NCBI GenBank assembly: GCA_043721535.1
Contig: JAYSQO010000001.1
Location: forward strand, 19,626 to 83,625
DNA from: Bdellovibrio sp.
GTDB lineage: Bacteria; Bdellovibrionota; Bdellovibrionia; Bdellovibrionales; Bdellovibrionaceae
DNA: 64,000 nucleotides
Reading direction: 5' to 3'
Below, one piece after another: positions 1,759 through 64,000 of this stretch. The notes beneath the pieces are model-generated. The model worked only from the letters and a program-made list of their open reading frames with translations, ran no database searches and was not told the origin of the DNA. The first letter of the stretch is position 1. Every line of letters starts with the position of its first letter. The translations under genes and the position numbers were made by a program.

Positions 1759-1847
1759 AAAATCCAGGTCTGTATTTTGGACGAAACTCTAGATTTTTTA
1801 ATAATCAGTTTGACATATATGTCTAAAATGGACGACAATTTAGACAT

Positions 1848-4701: not shown

Positions 4702-4713
4702 TAAACTGCCTTT

Positions 4714-5502
4714 ATGAAAAAAATAAATACCGCTTCAATCATTATAGCACTATTTTCTGGAACTCAAACCCTTGCCGCTGCACCTCTGGCCCAGACCAAC
4801 GTCGGGCTAAAAGCAGCAGGCTTAGATGCAGTTCTACAAGCCAGCCTTATTGTTCAAATTGTTATGCTGATTTTAATCAGTTTATCAATTTTATGTTGGG
4901 CTATAGCCTGGTCAAAACATCAAGACTTCAATGCTGTTAAGAAAGCTAATGAAATTTTTGATCATGTTTTTTGGAAGTCTTCATCGCTTGATGAATTGAA
5001 TGAAAAGATTGATTCATTTAAAGATTCTTCACACGCCAGGGTTTTTAAATCGGCTTACATTGAAATGAAAAAGTTAGCTGAATCACCAATGTTGAATAAA
5101 AATATTAATAATGATTCTGAACCGCCGTTACTATCTGGTGTTGATAATTTAGAACGTGCCATGAGAAAAGCAATTGAGAATGAACTATCAGGCCTTGAAA
5201 CACGCCTGACTGTGTTGGCATCGACTGGATCAACAGGGCCTTTCATTGGATTATTCGGAACAGTTTGGGGAATTATGAATTCATTTCATAAAATTGGCCA
5301 AACAGGGTCTGCTAGTCTTGCCGCAGTGGCGCCAGGTATTTCTGAAGCCCTCATAGCAACGGCGATTGGTTTAGCGGCCGCTATTCCTGCAGTTATTATT
5401 TATAATCACTTTGTTGCAGAAATTAAAAAAGAAGAAACGCATCTTAATAATTTTGCCTCTGATTTTTTAAACATTGTAAAAAGAAATTTCTTCAGAGGTT
5501 AA
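4714..5502 (+). CDS. tolQ: TolQ (MotA/TolQ/ExbB family)
   Basis: LASTGSTGPFIGLFGTVWGIMNSF...VAPGISEALIATAIGLAAAIPA; first gene of tolQRAB. Confidence 0.93.
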   Translation: MKKINTASIIIALFSGTQTLAAAPLAQTNVGLKAAGLDAVLQASLIVQIVMLILISLSILCWAIAWSKHQDFNAVKKANEIFDHVFWKSSSLDELNEKIDSFKDSSHARVFKSAYIEMKKLAESPMLNKNINNDSEPPLLSGVDNLERAMRKAIENELSGLETRLTVLASTGSTGPFIGLFGTVWGIMNSFHKIGQTGSASLAAVAPGISEALIATAIGLAAAIPAVIIYNHFVAEIKKEETHLNNFASDFLNIVKRNFFRG

Positions 5503-5505
5503 TTT

Positions 5506-5922
5506 ATGGGAATGCAAACCTCTGGTTCACGCAGTTCTAAAGTGGCTATTAGTGAAATCAATGTAACACCATTTGTTGATGTGATGTTGGTTTTACTTGT
5601 GATTTTCATGGTCACAGCCCCTATGATGCAACAAGGCCTTGATGTTGATTTACCAAAAACATCTTCTGCAGGTATTGCATTAAATGAAGATCCTTTCGTT
5701 GTATCAATCGATGCCTCTGGTAAAATTAAAATTTCAGATACAGTGATATTGATGACTGATTTAAAAACTAAATTAACTGCTATTTTTGAAACCAAAAAAA
5801 ATAAACAAATTTATATTCAAGCCGACAAAAAAGTTGACTACGGTGTCGTTGCAGAAGTTATGGGCGAAGCCCGTGCCGCAGGTATTTACAATCTTAGCCT
5901 TATAACTATACCTAAGGATTAA
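5506..5922 (+). CDS. tolR: TolR (ExbD/TolR family)
   Basis: EINVTPFVDVMLVLLVIFMVTAP; ADKKVDYGVV. Confidence 0.95.
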   Translation: MGMQTSGSRSSKVAISEINVTPFVDVMLVLLVIFMVTAPMMQQGLDVDLPKTSSAGIALNEDPFVVSIDASGKIKISDTVILMTDLKTKLTAIFETKKNKQIYIQADKKVDYGVVAEVMGEARAAGIYNLSLITIPKD

Positions 5923-6663: not shown

Positions 6664-8028
6664 ATGAAATCAGTTTTAATTTTTATATTAAGTTCTTTAT
6701 TATTTGTTAGCGCACAAGCCCAACAGGCTTACATCAAAATTGGCGAAGCTCAGTCTAAGAAAAGTAATTTAGCTTTTCCTCCGATGAATAATTTAAGTGG
6801 TGTAAAAACAAGTCAACATGTGACATTGGCCACTGAAATTTTTAACACAGCTAAAAAAGATTTAGAATTGTCGACTTATTTTAATGTGATGTCTCAAGCT
6901 GCTTTTTTAGAAAATACAACAACTCTGTCGATTAAACCAAAATCTAATGACAGTAATGGTTTTGGTTTTGAAACATGGAAGGCTATCGGCGCTGATTTTT
7001 TAATTCGGTCATCAATTTCTGTCGTTAATACCGATATGACCGTTGAAATGTTTTTATACCAAGTTGATCAGTCAAAAACTGTCATCGGTAAAAAATATCA
7101 AGCTAAAACTGATTCAACTGTTAAAATCGGACACATTTTAGCCAACGATATTTTAGAAGCCCTAACTGGCAAGCGCGGTGCTTTTTTATCTAAAATTATT
7201 GCGACCACTGATCGCACTGGGCACAAAGAAGTTTTAACTATGAACTGGGATGGGTTAGAGCAAAAAGTCATTACCCGCGATCGTAGCGTAGCTATTTCGC
7301 CCAATTGGTCACCTGATGGAAATAGTATTATTTATTCAATTTACACCAGACGAATTAGATCAGCACAAATGAATTTAACTTTGTTCCAGCATAATTTAAA
7401 TACAGGCAAGCGATCAATTATTTCTAACCGTAACGGGTTAAATTCAGGTGGTACATATTCTCCGGATGGACGATCTATTTATTTAACTATTTCACAAAAT
7501 GGCGCTCCAGATATTTATAAATTAAATTTACAAGGCGAAGTCATAAACCGTTTAACGAAAGGCCCTGCAGGTGCCATGAACGTCGAAGCAGCCCTTTCAA
7601 AGGATGGTTCAAAGGTTGCCTTCTCATCAGATCGTGGCGGTAACCCAACTATTTATTCGATGAATGCTGATGGCAGTGGCGTTAAAAGATTAACTTTCCA
7701 AGGTAAATATAATTCGTCTCCGACATGGTCACCCGACGGGCAAAAAATTGTTTTTGCCAGCCAGATTGATAAATATTTTGATATCTTTAGCATGAACAGT
7801 GATGGTTCAGATTTAAAACGCCTGACAACGGCTAATAAACCCAACGGTCAACGCGCTAGCAACGAAGATCCCAGCTTTTCTGCTGATGGACGATTTATCG
7901 TTTTTACCAGCAATCGTAGTGGTAAATTTCAGGTTTATGTAATGAGTTCAGATGGCAAAGAAGAACGCCGTGTCACGCAAGATTCTTATAACTATTATAA
8001 ACCTAAATGGTCGAATAATCTGGAGTAA
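6664..8028 (+). CDS. tolB: TolB beta-propeller protein
   Basis: Signal peptide, TolB_N domain and PD40 repeats (SPNWSPDG, PTWSPDG, PSFSADG). Confidence 0.95.
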   Translation: MKSVLIFILSSLLFVSAQAQQAYIKIGEAQSKKSNLAFPPMNNLSGVKTSQHVTLATEIFNTAKKDLELSTYFNVMSQAAFLENTTTLSIKPKSNDSNGFGFETWKAIGADFLIRSSISVVNTDMTVEMFLYQVDQSKTVIGKKYQAKTDSTVKIGHILANDILEALTGKRGAFLSKIIATTDRTGHKEVLTMNWDGLEQKVITRDRSVAISPNWSPDGNSIIYSIYTRRIRSAQMNLTLFQHNLNTGKRSIISNRNGLNSGGTYSPDGRSIYLTISQNGAPDIYKLNLQGEVINRLTKGPAGAMNVEAALSKDGSKVAFSSDRGGNPTIYSMNADGSGVKRLTFQGKYNSSPTWSPDGQKIVFASQIDKYFDIFSMNSDGSDLKRLTTANKPNGQRASNEDPSFSADGRFIVFTSNRSGKFQVYVMSSDGKEERRVTQDSYNYYKPKWSNNLE

Positions 8029-8098: not shown

Positions 8099-8752
8099 AT
8101 GAAAAAAAATAACCAAACTGCTAAAGCGTCTAAACCTGTTCAACTTATACTTTGGATTTACTTACTGGCTTTTGTTTTAATGACATGGTCATTTCAGTCT
8201 CGTGCAAATCTAAATCAAAACCCAGTTGTTGAAATGAAAACTTCAATGGGTCAAATAAAAATTCAACTATTTAAAACTGAAGCCCCTATTTCGACAGAAA
8301 ACTTTTTAAAATATGTCGACAAAAAATTCTACGACGGCGTGATTTTTCACCGAGTGATTAAAGGATTTATGATTCAGGGCGGTGGTTTTTTACCTGACAT
8401 GACAGAAAAACCAACTTTATTTTCTAATATCAAAAATGAAGCTAAAAATGGTTTATCAAATAAACGTGGGACATTAGCAATGGCTCGCACAAATGAAGTT
8501 GATTCAGCTTCAGCACAGTTCTATATCAACGTTGTTGATAATGTGATGCTTGATTACAAATCTCAGGATCAATTCGGTTACGCAGTTTTCGGTGAAGTGA
8601 TTGAAGGCATGGACGTTGTTGATAAAATCAGAGCAGTATCAACGACAACTAAAAATGGTTTTTCAGATGTTCCTGAAAAAACTGTAAAAATTGAATCTAT
8701 ACGTTTAGCAAAAAATTCAGACAAAACAAAATCTAAAAAAGGGCTTAAATAA
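8099..8752 (+). CDS. ppiA: Periplasmic cyclophilin-type peptidyl-prolyl isomerase (PpiA-like)
   Basis: [42 protein letters not shown]; N-terminal export signal. Confidence 0.85.
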
Positions 8753-9292: not shown

Positions 9293-10597
9293 TTATTTAT
9301 ACTTTTTTAATATTCTTGGATCGACTTTAACTTCACTAAATAAAGTCCCAATCGTTTTTTGTGTTTCAAATTTAGAACTAGCTAATCTGTAAATTGACGA
9401 TTGAGCAATTTGAAAGTTTGATGAGTAACTACTTAAGTAGCCAAGAACTGATTCGAGTTCATATTTTTGGCCTTGCTCGATTCCACGCATAACGCTTTCA
9501 ATTATATTTTGATCTTTAACTAAGTTTTCAGAAGTCAGATTAAAAGTATCATTTAAACTTTTTAAGCTTAAATATGATGACTCTAAATCAAATTTCAAAT
9601 TATCAATAGTTGCGATGTTTTCACTTTCTGCTGCAGCTAAACTATTCGCACTAGCATTATTTCTGTAAACAACACCACCGTCTATTGAATATGATATTGA
9701 TAATCCAACATACTGGCTGCTAGATTCAGATCTATAATCATCCGACTTTGAAGAATTAAAGCTTGTTCCCACTTGTAGGTCAATACGAGGTCTAAATAAA
9801 CGACCTTTATCAGCTTCACGTTCATATTGAGCAGCTTCTAAGTTATATTTTGTGATGTTCACATCAGGACTATTGTTCATAGCCTCAGTTACAGCGGCAT
9901 CAGCGGTTTCAGGGATTTGAATCGAATTCGCCATTTTGTAGGTTGAATCAATTGATCCAAAATCAGCTTGTTCATTATATGAATAAAATTTTAAAGCCAC
10001 TGTATTTTGATTTATATTGTTTTTATACTGTTGAATATTAACTTTTTGGCTATCGATACGTTGTTGTAGCCTTTGCAATTGGTCTGTCGTTACAGCAATT
10101 TTTTTAGTTTTCTCTAATAGAAAAATATAGTTTGAATAAAACTTATAAAAAGTTATTGCATCTGACAAACTTAAATATGAATTAAAAATATTACTTGCTG
10201 TATCTGCATTTGTGTTTCTTATAAAAGAATTGCTTGAGTTATAAGTTGCATCCAAGGCTTTGAATCTGGCTTCTGCTGCTTTGACGCCAGCGACATCACT
10301 ACCGCCATTGTAGATATTTAAATTACTACCAACACCATATGAATGACTATTTGAACTGTTTGTCGAAAAGTCACTTTTGCTGCGCGACTGACCAAACGAA
10401 GATGAAATAGAAAGGCTTGGAGAATACACAGATATTTTCTGGGCTTTTAGTTGATCACTGGCAGATTGCATTCGTAAATTGATAGCTTCCGCATACCGAT
10501 TGTTTTCTAAACCGTACTTGATAAAATATTGAAGTGATTCGGCCATCGCCATTTGCGATATAAACATAAGTCCTAAAATAAGCTTAATCTTTTTCAT
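9293..10597 (-). CDS. TolC-family outer membrane protein
   Basis: Signal peptide and two OEP-like repeats (YSPSLSISSSFG...GVGSNLNIYNGG; FRPRIDLQVG...VGLSISYSIDGG). Confidence 0.8.
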   Translation of the reverse strand: MKKIKLILGLMFISQMAMAESLQYFIKYGLENNRYAEAINLRMQSASDQLKAQKISVYSPSLSISSSFGQSRSKSDFSTNSSNSHSYGVGSNLNIYNGGSDVAGVKAAEARFKALDATYNSSNSFIRNTNADTASNIFNSYLSLSDAITFYKFYSNYIFLLEKTKKIAVTTDQLQRLQQRIDSQKVNIQQYKNNINQNTVALKFYSYNEQADFGSIDSTYKMANSIQIPETADAAVTEAMNNSPDVNITKYNLEAAQYEREADKGRLFRPRIDLQVGTSFNSSKSDDYRSESSSQYVGLSISYSIDGGVVYRNNASANSLAAAESENIATIDNLKFDLESSYLSLKSLNDTFNLTSENLVKDQNIIESVMRGIEQGQKYELESVLGYLSSYSSNFQIAQSSIYRLASSKFETQKTIGTLFSEVKVDPRILKKYK

Positions 10598-10851: not shown

Positions 10852-13623
10852 TTGAGACAATTTAAGAAGGCTTTATTTATTATTATTCAAATCATCATGG
10901 CAACAACATTTGTTGCGTCGATGTTTTCTAAGGTACATGCTCAGGCAGAACCAACAAATTTTGGCTCTGAAGCAATTCCATTTGTAGTGGATACTTCAAA
11001 AGATGAAAGTCATTTATTGCTTAGAAAAATCAGACAAGAACTTAACCAAGATATGAAATTATCCCAAGAACAAGCCACCAAAGACGGCGTTCTTAAATCA
11101 ACAGCAAAAACTTTTGTTCCAACAAGTGCGGCGTTTGCTGCGGCTGGCGGATTGATTTACTTCACACAATTAATGACTTTAACACACTCAGATCCAACTT
11201 TAATGATCAAGCATTTTGAGTCATTAAAAGATCCTATCGGTCATGTTTCCTTTGGAATGTTCATGATATCACAGGGTCTTTACATTGATTTTAAAACTAA
11301 ACATTTAGACCCGATGACTAAATCATTAATGATGAGAAAATTAATGTACAAAGGTATGGCGATAGGATCATTGGCTTCAACCATCACTGCTGATGTTTTA
11401 ACAACACTTAAATCATGTACCACAGGATGGATCGAAAACAAAAATGATGAGGCTTCTCACGCGGCCTGTGATCAAGCCCTTGAACAATGGACATTAAGAA
11501 ATAAAACAACACAGTATGTTCCCCAAGTCATGTCATTATTATTTACACAATTAATTACTGACAGTATTGAATTAGCACTTCATAAAGGTAAATCAACAAA
11601 ATCATATAAGAAATCAATATCTGCTACAGACAACAAAATATCAGAAGTTTTTCAACTTACAGGCGCTGCTGTAACTATGATCGTTACACCTGGTGGTCCT
11701 GTTGTCAAAGCTGTTAAATGGCTAGGTAATCTTGGTAAGTTCGGAATGTTTTTAACGGTCGATCATTTTGTTACACCGTCAGTTACAAGATTCGGAAATA
11801 ACTTGTTGCAACCTGTTCTTTTTGAAAACAATAGATTGTCTATTAATAGTTTAATCAAACAATCTAGCGAAAAGAAAAAACTCGCTACAGATTTTCATAA
11901 ACAAATTTTATCTGTGACTGCAAACATGCTGAAATGGCGTGGCCACTTAAACGGCAAAAACGAATTAGATTTAATGGGCTGGAATGAGGCAACAAATAAA
12001 TTATTACATCAAATTAATTATGCAAAAACTTTCTATTCAAAATTTATTGAAAATGTATTTGAAACTAAATACAGACAGTCTTTAATTAACCAAGGTGTTT
12101 TTAGTCAATACCCAGATCGCGCTTGGGCATTGCAAAACAAATATCCCTTAAGAACATTGCCGCTTATGGGTGTTACTCCTCTTAAATTACCCAATAATAT
12201 GAACGCAAATGATGCCTATTTAACAATTGCTTATGATATTGAATCTTCGCAAAGTGAAAATATTTTTAAACAAGTTAAAACATTTAAAAATAATTTGGTT
12301 GAATCAAAAATGCTACAGTTTTCTAAAGATAAACTAAATCAATTATTAAATGCACTGTTAGTTCAAGATTACACAAAGCAAGGCCGTGGACTGTATGAAA
12401 TTAACCGTTTATTAATGCTTTATGAAAAACCAATTTACTACGGAAAAGATTCTTACAAAGGGAATCCCTATTTAAATTCCTATGAAGAAGAATTTTTAAC
12501 TCAGTTTAGAAAATCATTAGGTGACCCAAGACCTCAATTTGTCGAAGGTGCTTCATACGCTGTGGCTTTTGATACGCATACTCAGAACTATGATGTAGCT
12601 AAGACAGCTGACTTTGATCTTTCAAGTTTATTTAAATATGGCTTTGTAAAGCCAAGTGATCTCATGATTTACCAAATGATTTGTGGTGCTAACTATTTTA
12701 AAATTAATGAAGGTATCTTATCTGCGTTTACAGTTGAAACTCCTCGTATTATAAATTCAAAAACTCCGATTGAACTTTGTGAAAAAAGTATAACCAACTC
12801 AATAAATACAAAAAGTTTATACAGTCATGAAATCACGGTAGACGGCCAAAAATATGAAAACGTCACTCGACTTTTGATGTCTAAGTTAGATCCATCTATA
12901 TTAGGTGATACAACTGATAAAAATTTACTAATGAAAAACTTCAATACATGGTGGGCACAGCAAATTATGCCAGACTTAACCAGATCTTTAAAAAGTTTAG
13001 ATCAAAGATATGCCGTTATTGTTGATAGAACATACCAACAGATAATTAATAATAAAGGTAACGTGGACAACGCTTTAGACTGGATTGCAAAAACAGATTA
13101 TTTAGGCGCAGATATCGAAGACAACTTAAAAATTGAATTAGAATTCTACTTAAAAACACTGGAAATGATTTTAACTGAAAACTACAAACACAAGGGCAAC
13201 TACTTTGATCAAGTGGCTTTATCTGCAGTATCAAAAAATTGCACTTTATTAAAAAACTCTAAAGTGATCTTATTAAAACAAAAATACACTGGCTTATTTA
13301 ATTTATTCCATCAAAAAACAGTTTCTTTTGATTCAGCCAATACCATTTATCAGTCAACAGAAGAGGAACTACAAAACTTTTTTGCACCTTTTGAATCTGA
13401 ATTTTCAAACGTGAATGAGCAATCAAAAGAAGATATTAAGTCTGCACTAGAAATTTATAAGGGGCTTAATTCAGTTCTAGGCGAAGCCCATCGTTATGTG
13501 ATGATGAAAGTACAGCTTGAGCAGAAGCTTTCAGCAGACGTTGCAGTGCTGAATCGACAGCTTAAAGAACAACAAAAGAAAGCGATTCAAACAAAAAGAG
13601 GATCCGCTGTTAACAGTTTATGA
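10852..13623 (+). CDS. Large secreted or membrane-associated hypothetical protein (923 aa)
   Basis: Long ORF with a TTG start after a GAGAGG SD, an N-terminal signal (…KVHAQA) and hydrophobic segments in the first third. No family recognised. Confidence 0.8.
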   Translation: MRQFKKALFIIIQIIMATTFVASMFSKVHAQAEPTNFGSEAIPFVVDTSKDESHLLLRKIRQELNQDMKLSQEQATKDGVLKSTAKTFVPTSAAFAAAGGLIYFTQLMTLTHSDPTLMIKHFESLKDPIGHVSFGMFMISQGLYIDFKTKHLDPMTKSLMMRKLMYKGMAIGSLASTITADVLTTLKSCTTGWIENKNDEASHAACDQALEQWTLRNKTTQYVPQVMSLLFTQLITDSIELALHKGKSTKSYKKSISATDNKISEVFQLTGAAVTMIVTPGGPVVKAVKWLGNLGKFGMFLTVDHFVTPSVTRFGNNLLQPVLFENNRLSINSLIKQSSEKKKLATDFHKQILSVTANMLKWRGHLNGKNELDLMGWNEATNKLLHQINYAKTFYSKFIENVFETKYRQSLINQGVFSQYPDRAWALQNKYPLRTLPLMGVTPLKLPNNMNANDAYLTIAYDIESSQSENIFKQVKTFKNNLVESKMLQFSKDKLNQLLNALLVQDYTKQGRGLYEINRLLMLYEKPIYYGKDSYKGNPYLNSYEEEFLTQFRKSLGDPRPQFVEGASYAVAFDTHTQNYDVAKTADFDLSSLFKYGFVKPSDLMIYQMICGANYFKINEGILSAFTVETPRIINSKTPIELCEKSITNSINTKSLYSHEITVDGQKYENVTRLLMSKLDPSILGDTTDKNLLMKNFNTWWAQQIMPDLTRSLKSLDQRYAVIVDRTYQQIINNKGNVDNALDWIAKTDYLGADIEDNLKIELEFYLKTLEMILTENYKHKGNYFDQVALSAVSKNCTLLKNSKVILLKQKYTGLFNLFHQKTVSFDSANTIYQSTEEELQNFFAPFESEFSNVNEQSKEDIKSALEIYKGLNSVLGEAHRYVMMKVQLEQKLSADVAVLNRQLKEQQKKAIQTKRGSAVNSL

Positions 13624-30735: not shown

Positions 30736-31463
30736 GTCAGCGTTCTTACTTAGGCCAATTGCTTGACGAAGCTCGCGAAGCCTTCATCGATGGTCATTAT
30801 CAAGAGGCAGAACCGTTATTAAATCAGCCGACATTATTGAATTCAAATAATCCTGAAGTTTACCAAATGCTAGCGACTATTTACTACAATCGCGGCCAAT
30901 TTAACAAAGCCATTAAAACTTTTAAGAAAGCTTTAGAAATTGACCCACAATACAGTGATGCGGCTGTTGGGTTATCAATCATTTTAAATGATCTAGGTAA
31001 ATACGACGAAGCGAAAAAAGTTTTTCAGCAGGCCCAAACAATTGTGGACGAGAAAAAACAAAATCAATTCGGTTTACAGCTTGAAGAACGAATTGCGACG
31101 AAACACATTGAAATTGCAGACATGTATTTACAAATGAAGCGCCAAGATCAGGCCTTAGAGCAGTACATGAAAGCTTTCCAGCTTTCGGCTAAAAAAGGTG
31201 AAATTTCTTTGCTCATCGCCCAGTGCTATGTGCAGCAAGGCCAAACAAATAAAGCCATCAAAGAGTTAAAAACAGTGATTCAAATGGATTCGAAGCTGAT
31301 TTCACCGCGTCTAAAACTAGGCCTAATTCTGTATAACTCACATCTTGTTGCCGAAGCCGTGGAACAGTGGGAATATGTCTTACGATTAGATTCTAAAAAC
31401 GTTGAAGCCCACCGATATTTGAAGATGGCGCAAACAACTGGGATCACAAACATAGATTTATAA
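30732..31463 (+). CDS. TPR repeat protein
   Basis: Multiple TPR consensus repeats (AIKTFKKALEIDPQYSDA); ATGA overlap with bamD. Confidence 0.88.
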   Translation: MSQRSYLGQLLDEAREAFIDGHYQEAEPLLNQPTLLNSNNPEVYQMLATIYYNRGQFNKAIKTFKKALEIDPQYSDAAVGLSIILNDLGKYDEAKKVFQQAQTIVDEKKQNQFGLQLEERIATKHIEIADMYLQMKRQDQALEQYMKAFQLSAKKGEISLLIAQCYVQQGQTNKAIKELKTVIQMDSKLISPRLKLGLILYNSHLVAEAVEQWEYVLRLDSKNVEAHRYLKMAQTTGITNIDL

Positions 31464-57714: not shown

Positions 57715-59049
57715 TTAAATTTTATATCTGGCTATAAACCCTTCGACTGCATAATAAGGCCAGTTTTTGACCTGAAGGTACGAGTTTTCTGCTAGTTTGA
57801 CTTTATCATCATGAAAATATTCATTTGAAAACTTAGTAGCTAAATCGATATTCTTTTCTTGAGCGAAAACTTGTAACGATTTCAATCGATTGCCTTTTGC
57901 AGCTTTAACTTCGATAGGTAGAATTTTTTTATCATGGCTCCAGATAAAATCAATTTCGGCTTTATCTTTATCTTTGTCTTTTAGCCAAAAATAATTTTCA
58001 GGCTGATTATTTTGATTATATGCGTAAGCCAAGTGCTGTGAAATAAATTGTTCTGCTAAAAAGCCTTTTGTTTCAAAAGATGAATCGAAAAGATCATTGA
58101 AATCATCCCAACTGATTTTATGAATTGAATTCAACAGACCAATATCAAGAAAATAAAATTTTAGCACAGAATGATCGATTGTCGAAGCCACTGGCAGCTG
58201 TGTCGCATTGACATGATAACAGGGCACCAGAATGTGTGCCAATCTTAGCATTTCAATATATTTTTTAATTTCAGCCGATTTCATTTCACGTTCAATATGC
58301 TGATAAATTATTTTTTTTCCTAAATGAAATGGAATTTTTTGAAAAATTTGTGTTAATTTTTCTAAGTGAGTTCTTTTTTCGTATTTCGGAAAATCAAGAG
58401 TATAAGACATTAAAATGTCATTTTGAATTTTTCTGACTTCGGTAAACGATTTTGTGTCGACATAAGTTTGAACAGCTTTTGGCATCCCACCGATATAAAA
58501 ATAATTTTTGACTTCTTGTTTTAAAAGCTCATGAGAATATTCTGGTATTTCATTGTTGATAATAGATTCAGCCAATTGTGTTTTATTAATACCATTTAAA
58601 TATTCTGTGAATGTCATTGGTGAAAGATAAAGATATTCCACCCGGCCTACAGGAAAAGATATACTTTGTTCACTAAGGCTTAGTTCTAAGAGTGACCCTG
58701 CGCAAATAACTGGTATTTCTTTTTTTTCTTCATAAAAATATCTAAGTTTTGATAAAGCTTCAGCTTGATTTTGAATTTCATCAATAAAAATAATCGTTTT
58801 TTCATCAATTTTTTGACTCGATATGATTTCTATTTCATTGATCCAGCTTTTGATATCAAAGTTTTCTGAATCGATTGAGCGAAACTTTGTTTTTTCTAAA
58901 TTGATTTCAATTAATTTATAATTTTCATTTTTTGCGAATTGTCTAACTAGATACGACTTGCCGACTTGGCGGGCTCCACGAAGCACTAATGGCTTTCTGT
59001 CATAATGTTTTAGCCATATTTTAAGACTACTTTCAGCTATTCGTTTCAT
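57715..59049 (-). CDS. AAA_14/DUF4143 ATPase, copy 3 (long type)
   Basis: GARQVGKS, IFIDEIQ, CAGSLL, FPVGRV, KFYFLDIGL, EIDFIW…IEVKA. Confidence 0.92.
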   Translation of the reverse strand: MKRIAESSLKIWLKHYDRKPLVLRGARQVGKSYLVRQFAKNENYKLIEINLEKTKFRSIDSENFDIKSWINEIEIISSQKIDEKTIIFIDEIQNQAEALSKLRYFYEEKKEIPVICAGSLLELSLSEQSISFPVGRVEYLYLSPMTFTEYLNGINKTQLAESIINNEIPEYSHELLKQEVKNYFYIGGMPKAVQTYVDTKSFTEVRKIQNDILMSYTLDFPKYEKRTHLEKLTQIFQKIPFHLGKKIIYQHIEREMKSAEIKKYIEMLRLAHILVPCYHVNATQLPVASTIDHSVLKFYFLDIGLLNSIHKISWDDFNDLFDSSFETKGFLAEQFISQHLAYAYNQNNQPENYFWLKDKDKDKAEIDFIWSHDKKILPIEVKAAKGNRLKSLQVFAQEKNIDLATKFSNEYFHDDKVKLAENSYLQVKNWPYYAVEGFIARYKI

Positions 59050-59081
59050 ATCAAATATATAGCATTTAGATTTGCTTATGT

Positions 59082-59141
59082 CAATAACACCCCTGTTTTA
59101 GTCTATTTTAAGTACAATAACACCCCTGTTTTAGTCTATTT
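59082..59141. repeat. Exact 27-bp direct repeat, two copies, 33-bp period
   Basis: CAATAACACCCCTGTTTTAGTCTATTT at 59082-59108 and 59115-59141. Confidence 0.95.
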
Positions 59142-59234
59142 AACTCTCGTTAGACCTTAGTCCGATTTATCACCAACGAGTCCCCTAAACGTTATTCATC
59201 GTTTAAAATAAAGATTATTCCGAAGGATAAATTT

Positions 59235-59999
59235 ATGTTTAAAAAATATTTACTATTTATGACCGTTTTAGTTTTAACACACACCGCTTCAGCCGAAGTT
59301 TTATTTGAAGGTTATTTTAAGGTTTCACAGTTTAAAAAGCACATTGGCTTTTATATTTTAAAACAAGAAATCGACGCAAAAAATAAACAATTCAAAACAA
59401 CAAGCTTCATGAAGCTGGGTAAAAATGGGTTTGATCTAACTGAATCGCTTCAAGCTATTTCAACAACTGATTTTTTACCCATCAGCTATACGTATTTAGC
59501 GACTGATGGCAAAAAAAGCACATCGATTGATGCCACATTTAAAAATTTAAAAATGACCGGATTTCTGACTGAAAATGGAGAAAAGAAAAAACTAACAGGC
59601 AGTATTCCTAAAGGGTCTTTTTTATCGAGTTCACTTTACTACATGATGCTAAACAGTAAAGATGGTTTAAAAACTGGAGCCACTTTTGAATTTACTGCTG
59701 TCGCTGAAGAACGTGCCGACGCCCTGAAAGGCACAGCCACAGTTGATAAAAAAATGGTTTCAGAAGGAGCGTTGCAATTACTACGTATTAAAAATAATTT
59801 CGCTGGATCTGAATACGAAAATTTAATTACTCCGCGCGGTGAAAATTATTCAGCCAATACACCAGCCACGGGTATTGATACAATCTTAGTTAAAAATTCT
59901 GAAGAAGCTGTTCAAGGCATTAAAGTATCCGCAAGCACTTTAGAGAAAATATTTGGTCAAGTTCCACAGGGTAAAACAAATATCTTACAGCAGAAATAA
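59235..59999 (+). CDS. Secreted hypothetical protein (predicted beta-rich)
   Basis: SD AAGGA, signal peptide MFKKYLLFMTVLVLTHTASA. Confidence 0.85.
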   Translation: MFKKYLLFMTVLVLTHTASAEVLFEGYFKVSQFKKHIGFYILKQEIDAKNKQFKTTSFMKLGKNGFDLTESLQAISTTDFLPISYTYLATDGKKSTSIDATFKNLKMTGFLTENGEKKKLTGSIPKGSFLSSSLYYMMLNSKDGLKTGATFEFTAVAEERADALKGTATVDKKMVSEGALQLLRIKNNFAGSEYENLITPRGENYSANTPATGIDTILVKNSEEAVQGIKVSASTLEKIFGQVPQGKTNILQQK

Positions 60000-60015
60000 C
60001 TGAAGGGTTACATAT

Positions 60016-61131
60016 ATGAAATTAAATGAACTTATCGGCCAACACATGTTAATAGGCGTTTCAGGATTAACTCTGACATCTGACGAGAAAAAATTTATTA
60101 CTGAAAATAATATTTCTGGTGTGGTGCTGTTTTCCAGAAACTTATCCACACCTGAACAAATTCGGGATCTATGTGCAGAAATTCAATCTTTACGTCATAA
60201 GATGGCCTCACGTGCGCCCTTGTTTATCGGCATCGACATGGAAGGCGGACGTGTTCATCGCTTGAAATCTCCGTTCACACAGTGGCCACCACTGAAAACA
60301 ATTGGTGATCTTGATGCACCAACAGTGGCATTTCATTTCGCTCATCAAATGGGTATGGAATTAATGTCCGTAGGAATTAATCTTGATTTTGCACCTTGTA
60401 TTGATGTGTACACTAATCCAAAAAATACTGTCATCGGTGATCGTGCTGTTAGTAGCGATCCCCATCAAGTCGAAAAAATGGCATCAGCTTTAGTGCGTGG
60501 TTATATTAAATCAGGCATTTTATCTTGCGCTAAACATTTCCCCGGGCACGGACACACCATTATTGATTCCCATGAAGAATTACCAATTGAAGAAGCCGAT
60601 ATGAAAAGACTTAACGAAGTCGAACTTGTCCCGTTTAGAAAAGCACTTCGTAGCCGTGTTGATATGGTGATGACAGCCCACATTTTATTTAAATCCGTTG
60701 ATAAAGATTGGCCTGTGACATTATCAGAAATTTTTCTAAAAAAACTATTACGTGATGATTTAAAATACAGAGGCTTAGTCATCACTGATGATTTAGATAT
60801 GAAAGCCATGGCTAAACACTATGATAAAGGTTTTATTCCTGTGCGTTCCCTACAAGCCGGTGCTGATTTATTATTATATTGCAATGAACCTAAATCGCCA
60901 CCTATGGCCATTGAAACAATCATCACTGCTGTAGCCCAAGGTCAACATACTGAAGCCGAACTTAATCACACTTTAGGTCGCATTTTAGACGTTAAAAAAA
61001 TAAAAATGATTTCACCAGACCCGCGCCCAATCAGCGATTCTATGGAAATCATCGGCCACAAAGACCACCAATATATTGCTGACTGTTTACGGAAAGGCAT
61101 TATGCCTGAAGGCTTAGTTGATCAAGCATAG
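60016..61131 (+). CDS. nagZ: Beta-N-acetylhexosaminidase NagZ (GH3)
   Basis: IGIDMEGGRVHRL, KHFPGHG, DSH (catalytic His), VITDDLDM. Confidence 0.95.
   Translation: MKLNELIGQHMLIGVSGLTLTSDEKKFITENNISGVVLFSRNLSTPEQIRDLCAEIQSLRHKMASRAPLFIGIDMEGGRVHRLKSPFTQWPPLKTIGDLDAPTVAFHFAHQMGMELMSVGINLDFAPCIDVYTNPKNTVIGDRAVSSDPHQVEKMASALVRGYIKSGILSCAKHFPGHGHTIIDSHEELPIEEADMKRLNEVELVPFRKALRSRVDMVMTAHILFKSVDKDWPVTLSEIFLKKLLRDDLKYRGLVITDDLDMKAMAKHYDKGFIPVRSLQAGADLLLYCNEPKSPPMAIETIITAVAQGQHTEAELNHTLGRILDVKKIKMISPDPRPISDSMEIIGHKDHQYIADCLRKGIMPEGLVDQA
61093..61128 (+). repeat. nagZ 3' end, left copy of an imperfect 36-bp direct repeat
   Basis: aaaggcattatgcctgaaggcttagttgatcaagca (KGIMPEGLVDQA), 28/36 identical to 62311-62346. 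Confidence 0.85.
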
Positions 61132-61157
61132 GTTAATTTTTTACAAAAAGGAGTTTT

Positions 61158-61850
61158 ATGTTTAAGTTTATTCTGGTGCTAGTTTTCGGATTTTTAAGTT
61201 TTTCATGTGCTACATCTGTCAAGCAAAGACGAATAGCATTTTCTGATGCTATTTCAAGTCGCGCGCCAAGTGGTGGACAAATCATTCAACCTGAAAATTT
61301 ATTAGAATCCCTGCTAGGTCGAAAGCCAATTCAGAATTTAGCTAGTCTTTATCAAGATAAAAATATAACTGATGAAAAAATTAAATTGTTTAAATTTTAT
61401 GCCATGCATCCTATGCTTGGAACAAGTTATGTACCAGTGAAAATAATTAGTGACGAAGGTAACGGCTATTTTGTTCTTGAAAGTTTAATCGATCTTAAAT
61501 TAAAAGCTCACATGGAAATACGTGGTGCGCTAGAATTCGGCACCTTAGAATTTCAAAAAAAATTCAAAGAGCACTATAATAATATTGTTTTTTTAGTTCC
61601 TAATGGGTCTTTCAACAGACCTGACTTTGTAGTTGGTCAAAAAGTCTGCCCAAAAAAAGTTTTCAGGTGTGGTATCATTCTTCGAATTTATTCATCGGGC
61701 GAACTGCATGTTAGTTTAGAAAAGATAAAAATTGACCCTAATGCGACTGAAGACGAAATAATTGCTGCGAAAAATGCACAATTAGTTGATGACTTTATGA
61801 CAATGAATGTAGAAAAAGCTTACGTCGCGCCGATCGAGATGTTTAAGTAA
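61158..61850 (+). CDS. Hypothetical lipoprotein
   Basis: SD AGGAG, lipobox-like FSCA, followed by a RAPS motif. Confidence 0.8.
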   Translation: MFKFILVLVFGFLSFSCATSVKQRRIAFSDAISSRAPSGGQIIQPENLLESLLGRKPIQNLASLYQDKNITDEKIKLFKFYAMHPMLGTSYVPVKIISDEGNGYFVLESLIDLKLKAHMEIRGALEFGTLEFQKKFKEHYNNIVFLVPNGSFNRPDFVVGQKVCPKKVFRCGIILRIYSSGELHVSLEKIKIDPNATEDEIIAAKNAQLVDDFMTMNVEKAYVAPIEMFK

Positions 61851-61868
61851 TGAAATGTTCAACAGGCT

Positions 61869-61918
61869 TTTTTTCTGATCGAATTAGAACATGGAATTTC
61901 AAATTCGATCAGAAAAAA
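61869..61918. terminator. 17-bp perfect inverted repeat, probable bidirectional terminator
   Basis: TTTTTTCTGATCGAATT-N16-AATTCGATCAGAAAAAA between convergent genes. Confidence 0.75.
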
Positions 61919-61931
61919 GTTGTATATCTTT

Positions 61932-62213
61932 TTAGTTAAAACTCTTAGTGCATTTTATATCATCGCAAAAAACCCAACTAACACGAGATGCTAAACATAA
62001 GTTCTGAGCCAAAGCTCTTGAATCACTTTCTGTTCTTCCGTAACCGGTAAAACTACCATCAAATGGTGTTCTGGCTACACAAGTGTATGAAGTTTTTCCT
62101 GTTATTTCTTTAATGACTTCTGCTGCTTGTCTTACTTTTTCTAGCTCCTCTAAAAAGCCAGCATTAGCATTGACTGCAGTTAAAATAATTAGAGCTAGTA
62201 TCATTTTTTTCAT
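61932..62213 (-). CDS. Small secreted protein with four Cys
   Basis: SD AAGGAG, signal peptide (…VNANA), YTC…LC…FC…KC. Confidence 0.8.
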   Translation of the reverse strand: MKKMILALIILTAVNANAGFLEELEKVRQAAEVIKEITGKTSYTCVARTPFDGSFTGYGRTESDSRALAQNLCLASRVSWVFCDDIKCTKSFN

Positions 62214-62310
62214 GAAATTCTCCTTAGTTAATTGTTATTTTCATAACGTTTGTTTAAAGGTAATTTATATCGATAACAAAAGAATAAGAACGTACATATC
62301 TGTACAAAAT

Positions 62311-62346
62311 AAAGGTGTTATACCCGAAGGCCTGGTTGATCAGGCT
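62311..62346 (+). repeat. Displaced second copy of the nagZ 3' end
   Basis: aaaggtgttatacccgaaggcctggttgatcaggct (KGVIPEGLVDQA). Confidence 0.85.
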
Positions 62347-62511
62347 TTGGTATTTTCGAAGATATCAGGCTTATATCATAAATCGCGTAAATTCATAATA
62401 CATGTACTATGAAATGTTCTAGTTACCCATAAGTATATGAAATCTCTGTGCTTTATAGCATTTAAGTAAATTTGATGTACATGTGATCATTTTTACGGTA
62501 AATTAGACCAC

Positions 62512-63648
62512 ATGCACATCAAAAGAACTTTGCAAGCAACTTTAGTTAGAATGAAGAAGAGCGTGCTGCTTCTAGGACCACGTCAAACCGGGAAATCAAC
62601 TTTAATTAAGAAACTCAGTCCTGAGATTATAATTAACTTAGCAGATGAGGCGTTATTTTTAAGAATTTCATCTGACCCTGATTATTTCTTTTCCGTAATA
62701 AAAAATAAAAAAACAGTTTTTGTCGACGAAATTCAAAGAATTCCATCATTATTAAATTCTATACAAAAATTAATTGATGATGAAAAAATAAAATTTTTTC
62801 TGTCTGGTTCAAGTGCCCGTAAACTAAAAAGAGGCCAAGCTAATTTATTGCCAGGTCGAATTCTAAAATATGAACTATCGGGTCTGTCACTTAAAGAACT
62901 AGAATATCCAGAAAATTTGACCAAAGGACTGAGTTATGGATTCCTACCAGAACCATATCTAGAAGAAGACCGTAAGCTTTGCGAGAAATTACTGTCGACT
63001 TATGCACAGGTCTACCTAAAAGAAGAAATTCAATCAGAAGCTCTTACAAGAAATCTTCCGGGATTTATTCGTTTTTTAAATACCATGGCACAAAATTCTG
63101 GACGAATTCTTGATTTTTCAAAGATATCAACAAAATCTAAAGTGTCTAGAACGAGCATCATAAGATTTATTGAAATCCTTGAAGACACTTTAATCGGAAA
63201 CCGCGTCGAATCTTTTTTAGAAGCTGAAGACGCAGATATTATAAAGCATTCTAAATTTTATTTTTTTGACCCTGGAGTTTTAAATGGCTTACTGAATAAT
63301 TTCAATATTTCAGAAGATCGAATAGGTAATCTATTTGAACATTTAGTTTATGCTCAATTAGTAAATTCGGCGAAAGCTGCAGATTTAAATTTAGAGATTT
63401 TTTACTTCAGAACACGTAACGATGTTGAAGTCGACTTTATACTTAAACTTAATGGCAACTACTACGCTGTCGAAGTCAAATCAGGTGAGGTGACTAAAAA
63501 TGATATAAAAAGTTTAAAAAAATTTGAAGCCTATTTTCCGACTGTTAAACAAAGTTATGTCGTATCATTAAAGGAAAAACAAAAAAGGTCTTTAGATAAT
63601 ATCACTGTATGTAATTTAAGTGATTTATTAAAAGACCTGGGTTTGTAA
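62512..63648 (+). CDS. AAA_14/DUF4143 ATPase, copy 4
   Basis: GPRQTGKS, VFVDEIQ, LSGSSARKL, KFYFFDPG, EVDFIL…VEVKS. Confidence 0.92.
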   Translation: MHIKRTLQATLVRMKKSVLLLGPRQTGKSTLIKKLSPEIIINLADEALFLRISSDPDYFFSVIKNKKTVFVDEIQRIPSLLNSIQKLIDDEKIKFFLSGSSARKLKRGQANLLPGRILKYELSGLSLKELEYPENLTKGLSYGFLPEPYLEEDRKLCEKLLSTYAQVYLKEEIQSEALTRNLPGFIRFLNTMAQNSGRILDFSKISTKSKVSRTSIIRFIEILEDTLIGNRVESFLEAEDADIIKHSKFYFFDPGVLNGLLNNFNISEDRIGNLFEHLVYAQLVNSAKAADLNLEIFYFRTRNDVEVDFILKLNGNYYAVEVKSGEVTKNDIKSLKKFEAYFPTVKQSYVVSLKEKQKRSLDNITVCNLSDLLKDLGL

Positions 63649-63652
63649 CTTA

Positions 63653-64000
63653 CTACCCCGCACAAACCTTTTGGTAATAGCTCAGTAAAGCTTTTTCGAT
63701 CATCTCTCGGTCTTCTTCATCTACGATGAATATGGCTAACGGTGAATCCGCTGGCATATCCCTCTGAATGAAAAAAATACCCATCGTGTTCGGTGATACG
63801 AATATTTTCTGAGATGTCATATAAACTAGCTTTTGAATATCTGCAGGAAAATTTGAATCATAAACATCAATTTGGTAATTTCCTAAATGATCTTTTTGAT
63901 AACTTTTAGCAACCACCACATGTTGGCTGGTTTTAAAAGCACGCATATTAACAAGTGTCAGTTTTTTCTGATCAAGGTTCCCAGCAATTTGTCTAAATAG
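63653..64000 (-). CDS. C-terminal part of a protein running off the right edge (possible papain-like fold)
   Basis: The frame is open from 64000 (LFRQIAGNLDQKKLTLVNMRAF…), so the track's ATG at 63946 is probably internal; QHVVVA…VYDSN motif. Confidence 0.7.
   Translation of the reverse strand, partial: LFRQIAGNLDQKKLTLVNMRAFKTSQHVVVAKSYQKDHLGNYQIDVYDSNFPADIQKLVYMTSQKIFVSPNTMGIFFIQRDMPADSPLAIFIVDEEDREMIEKALLSYYQKVCAG

Follow-up and report, generated by a model that had tools for sequence, protein, structure and literature searches.

A relic nagZ tail as the probable footprint of genes inserted behind nagZ in Bdellovibrio-like predators

Introduction

Why should a bacterial genome hold the end of one gene twice, with other genes lying between the two copies? 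The question is raised by a stretch of 64,000 nucleotides (here, "the window") from a Bdellovibrio genome, in which the last 12 codons of nagZ recur a short way downstream. A preliminary description proposed that foreign DNA carrying its own nagZ end had recombined in behind the gene. This was held to have left a two-gene "islet" between two tails, both of them once coding, at a site that might be a hotspot for the capture of gene cassettes. Here, the locus is compared with its counterparts in relatives, referred to by working labels such as L063 or G320, and with known kinds of insertion.

Two Ends for One Gene

The target gene, nagZ (60016..61131, plus strand), is conserved and encodes a GH3 beta-N-acetylhexosaminidase. 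Its product matches Pfam Glyco_hydro_3 (PF00933) at 2e-77 and the NCBIfam equivalog NF003740 with 255.9 bits, against a cut-off of 207. The pair that it forms with a DUF3108 gene is kept genus-wide.

The functional last 12 codons of nagZ, AAAGGCATTATGCCTGAAGGCTTAGTTGATCAAGCA, occupy positions 61093-61128 and are followed by the stop codon TAG (61093..61131 with the stop, plus strand); this is "tail 1," the left copy of a direct repeat. The right copy, "tail 2," is AAAGGTGTTATACCCGAAGGCCTGGTTGATCAGGCT at 62311-62346 of the same strand. Here, the former stop has become TTG (62311..62349 in all), and what is left is a non-coding relic of a nagZ 3' end. The two tails are identical at 28 of 36 nucleotides and, compared in translation (KGIMPEGLVDQA against KGVIPEGLVDQA), at 10 of 12 amino acids. 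Seven codons have changed, six of them at the third position. In all of this, coordinates included, the recurrence is as first described.

Is the resemblance an accident? No other site on either strand of the window matches the tail at 25 or more of the 36 positions. Across 300 shuffles of the 2.9 kb downstream, the best match reached 17-23 of 36, against the 28 observed. When the tails of the 58 other long open reading frames in the window were sought within 3 kb downstream of each, the best recurrence was 4-6 of 12 amino acids, against 10 of 12 for nagZ. Together, these two controls exclude chance similarity; thus, the comparison with shuffled sequence that the preliminary description had proposed comes out in favor of the repeat.

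An assembler could, of course, have joined two strain variants in series, and so have made a chimera from a metagenome. The window's genome (G000) is a draft of 147 contigs, and mixtures of strains can make artificial serial joins at shared k-mers. Against this, four or more sources, assembled independently of one another and drawn from NCBI, ENA and Logan, show the tail 2 junction at a mutual sequence divergence of 8-16%. The assemblies that hold the junction or a longer second tail (G018/L026, L065/L066, L063/L064 and G320/L061/L090) come from different samples and different assemblers. For practical purposes, these assemblies refute both chance and chimera, to which we would give hardly any weight at all.

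The longest identical run between the window's two tails is only 9 nucleotides, which makes present-day recombination between them unlikely. The idea that nagZ tails attract insertions by acting as intrinsic terminators was dropped, as 21 folded tails gave no consistent hairpin; by a terminator-like score, the window's tail 2 alone among nagZ tails scored.

The Genes Between and Behind the Tails

Two genes lie between the window's tails, and they converge on a hairpin with a 17-bp stem, just as the preliminary description had it. The first, lipo230 (61158..61850, plus strand), starts 26 nucleotides past the nagZ stop with its own ribosome binding site and encodes a predicted lipoprotein of 230 amino acids. 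The second, cys93 (61932..62213, minus strand), encodes a secreted Cys-containing protein of 93 amino acids. The hairpin between them (61869..61918; stem 61869-61885 with 61902-61918) folds at -24.8 kcal/mol (z = -5.2), and none of 200 shuffles folds as well. Because its runs of U and A lie within the stem, it does not qualify as a canonical intrinsic terminator.

Neither protein matches a family in Pfam, NCBIfam or PADLOC. This, in turn, means that no recombinase is encoded between the window's tails, another point on which the first description holds. The lipo230 protein is rare: a database of 5.8 billion proteins holds only six clusters of it, and those with upstream context come from close relatives, where the gene immediately follows nagZ. 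A sample of 301 genomes from the order gave a convincing match only in the window's own genome. The gene has a dN/dS of 0.07-0.13 and is therefore functional. An AlphaFold2 model of its product, built from a six-sequence alignment, has a mean pLDDT of 49, too poor for a fold search.

The cys93 gene, a paralogous fragment of which lies on another contig of the genome (C114), occupies the position of a swappable cassette. In relatives, exactly this position, bounded by the end of lipo230 and a conserved 5' element, is taken by a gene for a 172-amino-acid or other secreted protein. That element, of ~100 nucleotides (62199..62310, minus strand), carries the start codon, ribosome binding site and promoter region of the minus-strand cassette gene, and ends on the right where tail 2 begins. 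It is 78-94% identical across all haplotypes. Two to three copies stand within the islands of L063, L065 and G320, and a single copy in G000.

The inserted DNA does not end at tail 2. The island between nagZ and the conserved TonB_C gene spans ~3.6 kb. Its order is lipo230, the swappable secreted-protein gene, tail 2, an AAA_14/DUF4143 gene, and a gene for a secreted protein of 307 amino acids. After tail 2 comes a spacer (62350..62511, plus strand) with a conserved, palindrome-containing stretch at ~62378-62416 and then a conserved module of ~50 nucleotides (62465-62511). This module precedes the AAA_14 gene in all haplotypes; it begins 5 nucleotides past the TAG of tail 2 in L065 and ~35 nucleotides past lipo230 in L067.

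The AAA_14/DUF4143 gene (62512..63648, plus strand) encodes 378 amino acids that combine an ATPase with a PD-(D/E)XK-type domain (Pfam AAA_14 at 1e-23, DUF4143 at 2e-28). It matches the PADLOC model PDC-S01 at 3e-58; a 444-amino-acid protein encoded upstream matches the same model at 2.5e-136. By its full-length match to these models and by its domains, the 378-amino-acid protein belongs to PDC-S01, a candidate single-gene defence system. In L065 and L067, an allele encoding 389 amino acids takes its place. The last island gene before TonB_C, for the 307-amino-acid protein, has its 3' part at 63653..64000 (minus strand) and runs beyond the window to 64576. It is present in the window, L063, G320 and G018, and missing in outgroup genomes. 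The AAA_14/DUF4143 gene is likewise missing at the nagZ site in at least 12 genus genomes. Calling the insertion a two-gene islet therefore understated its extent, since both genes behind tail 2 are also missing in most relatives within the genus.

No recombinase was found in the islands of five haplotypes, gene neighborhoods included. Profile searches with 10 further island proteins gave no match in Pfam, NCBIfam or PADLOC. A scan for tRNA and tmRNA genes near the island, and one for Rfam families and structured elements across 59000-64000, gave nothing above noise.

The nagZ Site in Relatives

Close relatives carry a second nagZ tail at the same junction as the window. In L063 and L064, it is 12 codons long. 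In L065, L066 and G018, it runs to at least 22 codons with the TAG stop kept; in G320, it has the long form, decayed. Homology of the repeat in relatives reaches ~27-33 codons before the nagZ stop. The pair of tails in L065 and G018 covers at least 66 nucleotides, of which 59 of 66 are identical, with one identical run of 38. These forms of at least 22 codons, one with its stop, bear out the proposal that the repeat downstream genuinely derives from the 3' end of nagZ.

Elsewhere in the genus, at least 12 genomes carry only one nagZ tail, with no repeat of it in the 2-10 kb that follow, and the tails bracket DNA that is missing there from the same site, as had been suggested. The TonB_C gene follows nagZ directly in 9 to 11 of the 14 genus genomes examined, across a spacer of ~100-160 bp. 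An empty-site haplotype was not found inside the clade that carries lipo230. Nor was nagZ found directly adjacent to AAA_14 anywhere in the searches; the nearest relatives of the 389-amino-acid AAA_14 protein (69-72% identity) stand behind other housekeeping genes, not nagZ. Between the sequence after tail 2 and the outgroup nagZ-TonB_C spacer, only a short T-run motif is similar, and not significantly so.

Between its tails, the window has 1.2 kb of cargo and G320 as much as 6.6 kb; across haplotypes, the number of genes varies from two to seven. Such a range does not fit a discrete two-gene unit. It does fit the suggestion that the DNA downstream of nagZ is a hotspot of variable cargo, for close relatives hold five different gene contents. 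The comparison of cargo and gene order across relatives by which the earlier proposal was to be judged thus gives variable cargo, with the second tail present in close relatives.

Identity along the locus changes abruptly. The window and L063 are 100% identical to the left of ~59700, 59-93% identical across nagZ, lipo230 and tail 2, and 99-100% identical again in the 3' half of AAA_14. Within the window, 59709-60530 is 95-99% L065-like. Judged by these identities, the nagZ locus is a fine mosaic of recombination tracts.

The relic tails tell a similar story. Tail 2 of L065 differs from tail 1 of G320 at 4 of 66 nucleotides, all of them synonymous, with the stop kept. Tail 2 of L063 is closest to tail 1 of L067 in a table of all tails, and both carry the Leu-Thr codons CTT ACT. 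The claim that both copies were once coding is supported in part by these matches to functional tails of other lineages. The third-position bias in the window, from which the claim was first drawn, is not decisive. Three differences of the window's tail 2 (GGT, GTT and ATA) occur in no other tail copy, and may be lineage-specific changes that followed the loss of coding.

The left junction of tail 2 is common to all haplotypes. The joint, then, was formed once, before the haplotype lineages diverged. Combined with the mosaic tracts, this argues for one old duplicative insertion followed by repeated homologous exchange, and not for the one simple capture first proposed.

Could a single import nevertheless have made the locus? 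Here, a diverged relative would have donated nagZ sequence with its own tail, together with lipo230 and cys93. The left crossover would lie inside nagZ, and homology-facilitated illegitimate recombination would have made the right joint, upstream of the resident stop. On this view, tail 1 would be foreign, and tail 2 the displaced resident. Such an import would make sense of tail differences that are mostly synonymous in the window, L063 and L065, and of tail 2 in L065, which keeps its stop and abuts the AAA_14 module like the end of a once-contiguous gene. Recombination breakpoints do, moreover, fall inside DUF3108 and nagZ. However, the left junction is shared by haplotypes whose nagZ genes differ by a dS of 0.3-1.0, and the alleles of tail 2 do not cluster together, so that later conversions are needed even under a single import. 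The three private differences in the window, which may post-date coding, speak against it as well. We consider this history unlikely, with perhaps the chance of an outsider.

Other Duplicated Targets in the Same Genome

The window's genome holds two fresher insertions with long target duplications, again free of recombinases. At glmS, a 50-nucleotide repeat of the gene's tail brackets a gene for 183 amino acids; the site is empty in many relatives, and G018 has a different gene between the same duplicated tail. On contig C46, a repeat of 212 nucleotides brackets a lone DUF4143 gene, and the site is empty in G322. The C46 repeat decays in the pattern expected from duplication of resident sequence, a further point against a single import at nagZ.

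These cases also bear on a site-specific integrative element. Here, circular cassettes would be integrated at an att site in the 3' end of nagZ by a tyrosine or serine recombinase whose gene lies elsewhere or has been lost, and a nagZ-like attP on the element would restore the gene. A restored gene end with a partial copy at the far end is, of course, the architecture of 3'-end integrators. A 2.1-kb DUF4143 contig with identical 133-nucleotide ends could be circular, and the tails of L065 and G018 share their 38-nucleotide run, which gene conversion explains equally well. But no integrase lies in or beside the island in five haplotypes, and no tRNA or tmRNA gene is near. The window's copies share at most 9 identical nucleotides in a row, and the cargo between tails varies in size from 1.2 to 6.6 kb. 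The repeat pairs at nagZ, glmS and C46, moreover, are unlike in sequence and in length (~100, 50 and 212 nucleotides). An integrative element is therefore quite improbable in our judgment, more so than the single import.

Are long duplications then a signature of DUF4143 genes? PDC-S01-type genes number 21 in the window's genome and 0-36 across the genus. Direct repeats surround 1 of the 21 in G000, 1 of 29 loci in relatives (that one on a possibly circular contig), and none of 7 further DUF4143 loci. Thus, long duplications are not a regular signature of the family.

Known Systems Compared

The closest known category for the nagZ insertion is "insertion with long target duplication," reportedly described by Nobusato and co-workers in 2000. 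It has been documented, chiefly among competent species, for restriction-modification genes that lack a mobility gene and are flanked by repeats of more than 30 bp (Furuta, Abe and Kobayashi, 2010, PMC2853133). The likenesses are many. Direct repeats exceed 30 bp (36 nucleotides in the window, at least 66 in L065 and G018), and the insert is below 20 kb. The repeat is a single-copy target in genomes with an empty site, here at least 12 of the genus. Transposases and integrases are absent, repeat length depends on the site, and repeats may overlap the 3' ends of the genes beside them.

The differences concern cargo and age. Published cases carry restriction-modification genes, whereas the nagZ cargo is a lipoprotein and a secreted protein. 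Between the nagZ tails there is no nuclease or restriction-modification gene; the DUF4143 gene, of PD-(D/E)XK type, stands immediately beyond them, and the C46 case does have nuclease-type cargo between its repeats. The nagZ event is, further, old and reworked by recombination, which is why the repeats in the window are only 78% identical.

Other systems resemble the locus in part. Islands and prophages that integrate at the 3' ends of tRNA, tmRNA or protein genes also keep their target intact with a supplied 3' end and leave a partial copy at the far border. The nagZ island, in contrast, has no integrase and no conserved att core in common with the other sites; its cargo varies in size, and its cassettes are exchanged internally. 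The minimal mobile elements (MMEs) of Neisseria and defence-island hotspots hold varying cargo between the same two core genes. As there, exchange would proceed by homologous recombination in the flanks, and a candidate defence gene is among the cargo. Those systems, however, need no duplicated anchor, whereas the nagZ relic lies inside the island and splits it into two exchangeable compartments. In integrons, too, coding cassettes that lack promoters change behind a fixed expression signal, a part played here by the conserved ~100-nucleotide element. But the nagZ island has no IntI integrase and no recognizable attC or attI, and its cassettes would be read from their own copies of the element, not from one common promoter.

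A Probable History for the Locus

We start from a duplication homologous to nagZ, a site that is empty in relatives, islands that lack a recombinase, variable cargo and mosaic tracts, all of which are observed. The reading that we prefer, with a probability of about 60%, is that tail 2 is the right copy of a long target duplication made by an insertion at nagZ, and that homologous recombination between lineages later reshuffled the locus.

Under this history, a small clade of Bdellovibrio-like species would descend from an ancestor in which foreign DNA (lipo230 and a minus-strand secreted-protein gene with its promoter) entered at the 3' end of nagZ, with no dedicated recombinase encoded there. 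The stretch duplicated would originally have measured ~100 nucleotides and taken in the final 27-33 codons of nagZ together with the stop, perhaps extending a few bases further. The DNA may have come in through staggered or illegitimate joining, or a circle bearing a fragment of nagZ may have integrated by a single crossover; RecA-type exchange would have followed. The left copy would have kept nagZ whole. The right copy would have become non-coding, just upstream of the AAA_14/DUF4143 candidate defence gene.

Ordinary homologous recombination between lineages would have done the rest. Lineages would have exchanged the secreted-protein gene, from the lipo230 stop up to the conserved 5' element, and also the AAA_14 allele downstream of tail 2. 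Functional nagZ alleles would have overwritten the relic tail in some lineages, or served to re-create it. A 52-nucleotide deletion would have shortened it in the window's lineage, and in another it would be decaying. The relic may now act as a homology arm.

A bolder extension would make the duplicated tails working equipment. Here, a pathway of this Bdellovibrio lineage would seed cargo, without a recombinase, behind nagZ, glmS and other housekeeping genes at their 3' ends; the many PDC-S01-type ATPase-nuclease genes might drive the seeding, and the tails would travel as portable homology arms. We consider this doubtful. Were it true, cargo with nagZ sequence on either side could enter any strain with a nagZ, whatever lies downstream, and would leave behind relic tails resembling functional ones from other lineages.

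What the Relic Tail Means

Judged from comparative sequence analysis, foreign genes have entered just behind nagZ in a few related Bdellovibrio-like predators, and the second tail is their genuine footprint. It marks a recombination hotspot that has no recombinase of its own. Insertion with long target duplication, so far known mainly from restriction-modification systems, would thereby gain new kinds of cargo and a further phylum. With examples at three ages in one genome (fresh, intermediate and old), it also offers material for studying the mechanism of such insertion. For those who annotate metagenome-assembled genomes, orphan gene tails of this sort are useful markers of insertion borders.

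Even with few classical mobile elements at its nagZ site, this predator would still turn over accessory genes behind conserved housekeeping genes, among them genes for surface and secreted proteins and a candidate gene for defence against phage.

The nagZ tail and its second copy

The repeat at the 3' end of nagZ is, on well-supported grounds, a real footprint of an insertion with no recombinase of its own, inside a recombination hotspot. The nagZ gene (60016-61131, plus strand) encodes a GH3 beta-N-acetylhexosaminidase (Pfam PF00933 at 2e-77; 255.9 bits against NCBIfam NF003740, where the cut-off is 207). Its last 12 codons, here called tail 1, lie at 61093-61128 on the plus strand and are followed by TAG. 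The second copy, tail 2, lies on the same strand at 62311-62346 and is followed by TTG. The two agree at 28 of 36 nucleotides and translate as KGIMPEGLVDQA and KGVIPEGLVDQA; seven codons are changed, six of them at the third position. Across the entire window, on both strands, tail 2 is the sole match to tail 1 of at least 25/36, and the best matches in shuffled versions of the 2.9 kb of downstream DNA reach 17-23/36. Among the 59 long ORFs of the window, nagZ alone has its last 12 residues recurring at more than 6/12 within its own 3-kb downstream region.

Between the tails, lipo230 (61158-61850, plus), encoding a 230-aa lipoprotein, and cys93 (61932-62213, minus), encoding a 93-aa Cys-containing secreted protein, converge on a hairpin with a 17-bp stem (61869-61885/61902-61918; z = -5.2). 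The preliminary description of repeat, genes and hairpin is thus borne out in all its details, coordinates included, and the similarity of the tails stands against shuffled controls.

Neither gene matches a family in Pfam, NCBIfam or PADLOC. The lipo230 gene is extremely rare: in 5.8 billion proteins its homologues fall into six clusters, and of 301 genomes sampled across the order its own is the only one with a convincing match. Wherever the context reaches upstream, the homologue lies immediately 3' of nagZ, and the last 40 residues of that nagZ are 95-97% identical to those of the window. The lipoprotein itself is 73-87% identical, and so diverges much faster than nagZ; it is nevertheless under purifying selection (dN/dS 0.07-0.13). 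It has a signal peptide and a lipobox-like Cys, and its AlphaFold model (pLDDT 49) is too poor for use. Starting 26 nt 3' of the nagZ stop with its own RBS, lipo230 is probably co-transcribed with nagZ. The product of cys93 and those of the genes that replace it elsewhere are small secreted proteins. Our best guess is that this cargo would comprise envelope or secreted accessory proteins of the predatory lifestyle. On a 3-kb contig of the same draft genome (C114:96-239) there is also a stretch homologous to the C-terminal half of cys93, at 60% identity and containing one stop codon, which lies tail to tail with an AAA_14/DUF4143 gene at 352-1566.

Empty and occupied sites in relatives

The window's own draft genome (G000) has 2.57 Mb, and the database entries of its near relatives read "MAG: Bdellovibrio sp." The DUF3108-nagZ pair is conserved across the genus. 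At least 12 genus genomes have a single nagZ tail, the second copy being absent from 2-10 kb downstream, and in 9 to 11 of 14 genomes examined the next gene after nagZ, at a distance of about 100-160 nt, encodes a TonB_C-domain protein. Its G000 counterpart is at window position 64800, past the window end.

Close relatives within the lipo230 group have a second tail at the same place. It reads KGIMPEGLTDQG in the contigs L063 and L064, and (N)HQYIADCLRKGIMPEGLVDQA with TAG after it (22 codons and a stop) in contigs L065 and L066 and genome G018. Genome G320 (GCA_043747495.1) has a decayed long tail 2, 6.6 kb behind nagZ. In contig L067, the AAA_14 module directly follows lipo230, and tail 2 is absent together with the cassette, the swappable minus-strand gene. 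The carriers of a second tail were assembled from different samples (NCBI, ENA and Logan), and their nagZ is 8-16% diverged from that of the window. Therefore, chance similarity and assembly chimera are both excluded; the relatives show tail 2 to be a genuine 3' end of nagZ.

An island with exchangeable cargo

The haplotypes have a common frame. After nagZ and tail 1 come lipo230, at least one minus-strand secreted-protein gene, an element of about 100 nt, and tail 2. These are followed by a conserved module of about 50 nt, the AAA_14/DUF4143 gene, variable genes, a minus-strand gene for a 307-aa secreted protein and the TonB_C gene. The AAA_14/DUF4143 allele has 378 aa in the window, L063 and G320, and 389 aa in L065/G018 and L067; haplotypes of the 378 type have a spacer of about 115 nt after tail 2. 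The protein matches the PADLOC candidate defence family PDC-S01 (3e-58), and DUF4143 has been placed in the PD-(D/E)XK nuclease superfamily (PMC3424549). The whole is an island of about 3.6 kb (61132 to about 64700), which the rest of the genus lacks at this position. The two-gene islet first described is thus its left compartment.

The cargo between the tails differs among close relatives, which agrees with the earlier proposal that the nagZ region is a capture hotspot. The window and L063 hold lipo230 and cys93, L065/G018 a 5'-truncated lipo230 and an unrelated 172-aa gene, and G320 seven genes. The cassette gene is swapped with exact borders, the lipo230 stop on one side and the conserved 5' element on the other; this element supplies the gene's start codon, RBS and promoter region and is present in 2-3 copies within larger islands. 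Among the island proteins of five haplotypes, only AAA_14/DUF4143 has a family match and, as previously claimed, there is no recombinase.

In the window the 5' element (promoter, RBS, first codons) spans 62199-62310, and it is common to unrelated small secreted-protein genes. Further copies lie at L063:4809-4855, 7568-7594 and 8123-8172; at L065:3148-3181, 5162-5194 and 5547-5568; and, on a contig grouped with G320, at L090:5260-5308, 10475-10531 and 12905-12963. Behind it only the coding part varies, as in an expression site with exchangeable cassettes. At 62378-62416, 5' of the AAA_14 gene, lies the highly conserved ATAAATCGCGTAAATTCATAATACATGTACTATGAAATG, containing the near-palindrome ATAATACATGTACTAT, and a TACATGT-containing module follows at 62465-62511. 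Both look like putative operators for a regulator; their order is permuted in haplotypes with the 389-aa allele.

History of the locus

The long tail 2 can be traced to about 27-33 codons before the stop, and in the window and G320 the sequence just past tail 2 resembles the stop-plus-T-run past tail 1. This puts the original duplication at about 100 nt, from whose 5' part 52 nt have been deleted in the window and L063. The left junction, where the conserved element meets tail 2, does not differ between haplotypes, which argues for a single founding event before the lineages diverged. Between these lineages nagZ dS is 0.3-1.0.

The tail 2 copies do not cluster with one another. That of L065 is nearest to the functional tail of G320 (4/66 nt differ, all synonymous, and the stop is kept), and that of L063 to the functional tail of L067 (3/36 coding nt differ, with CTT ACT, Leu-Thr, in common). 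The G320 copy shows plain decay: it is interrupted by a stop and has many replacements. The window's copy is 9-11/39 from all others. The idea that both tails evolved as coding ends thus gains partial support from L065 and L063, whose second tails lie near foreign functional ones. In the window itself the third-position bias carries little weight: three of the eight differences of its tail 2 occur in no other tail and may have arisen after loss of coding.

The locus is finely mosaic. To the left of about 59700 the window and L063 match completely (100%). Their identity then falls to 59-93% as far as the end of the stretch with nagZ, lipo230 and tail 2, and it is back at 99-100% in the 3' half of AAA_14. 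At 59709-60530 the window is 95-99% L065-like, and at the lipo230 3' end it is G320-like. When window 59409-63620 is compared with L063, L065 and G320, the low-identity tract covers about 3 kb, between the 3' end of DUF3108 and the 5' end of AAA_14. Its likely cause is recombination in several short tracts, each contributed by a different donor.

Our reading of this history is a single old insertion that duplicated its target, with frequent homologous exchange ever since; some exchanges would have overwritten tail 2, or made it anew, from functional nagZ alleles. An unlikely alternative is one homology-facilitated import, in which tail 2 would be the resident tail that was displaced; it would in any case require later conversions to account for the relationships among the tails.

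Fresher duplications in the same genome

Scanned as a whole for recurring gene tails and direct repeats, G000 gave two fresher examples. In the first, 50-nt copies of the glmS tail (the last ~40 nt of the gene and ~10 nt past its stop), 98% identical, lie at C30:30395-30444 and 31160-31209 around one gene for a 183-aa secreted protein. The opposite strand of the second copy encodes the C-terminus of a convergent SLT-like gene. Many genus genomes show the empty site, where no gene separates glmS from the SLT-like gene and the two overlap by about 46 nt. In G018 the same tail is duplicated (47 nt, 100% identical) around a 475-aa ATPase gene; other cargo at this site is hipBA in genome G315 and a 995-aa gene in genome G252.

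In the second example (C46:4302-6004), a 212-nt direct repeat, 95% identical, surrounds a lone AAA_14/DUF4143 gene (4553-5710, minus). The repeat is composed of the 3' ends of two convergent genes, and G322:C45, in a relative, is the empty site. The non-functional half of each copy decays normally, a new stop codon included.

At C115:13746-16726 a 95-nt direct repeat, 86% identical, surrounds a 386-aa secreted-protein gene about 330 nt upstream of another AAA_14/DUF4143 start, a mirror image of the nagZ arrangement.

AAA_14/DUF4143 genes number 21 in G000 and 0-36 per genome in 52 genus genomes; they match PDC-S01 (1e-48 to 1e-136) and usually lie just 3' of a housekeeping gene. Three are in the window, at 57715-59049 (minus), 62512-63648 (plus) and about 1827-3008 (plus). 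The first, upstream of DUF3108, is missing in most relatives, and L063/L064 have a Fic gene instead. A 2132-nt contig of genome G316 (L138, G316:C327) has one DUF4143 gene, a 159-aa ORF and identical 133-nt ends; it represents either a circle or a copy whose flanking repeats interrupted the assembly.

Mechanism

The nagZ insertion is closest to the documented category of "insertion with long target duplication." In that category, inserts of less than 20 kb lie between direct repeats of more than 30 bp that are single-copy in empty-site genomes; there is no mobility gene, and repeat length depends on the site. Furuta et al. (2010, PMC2853133) describe it for restriction-modification genes, chiefly of naturally competent bacteria. 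The insertion type is already known, and there is no sign of a new mechanism.

The repeat pairs at nagZ, glmS and C46 have neither length nor sequence in common. A site-specific recombinase is disfavoured by this, and a duplicative joining that is independent of sequence is favoured. An integrase acting in trans would find some encouragement in the 38-nt identical run between the tails of L065/G018 and in the identical ends of the 2.1-kb DUF4143 contig. It is nonetheless improbable, since no recombinase is encoded in five haplotypes, a tRNA scan found no tRNA target, and the repeats, differing at three sites, share no core. For a joining without a recombinase, the founding event may have been a staggered illegitimate joining, or a single-crossover integration of a circle that carried a nagZ fragment. 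The resulting bracket would give the cargo target homology on both sides, and RecA-type recombination could then move or replace it.

The pattern in this genome is wider than nagZ: tail duplications occur at several housekeeping genes, together with multi-copy DUF4143 genes, one of them fresh and with a 212-nt duplication.
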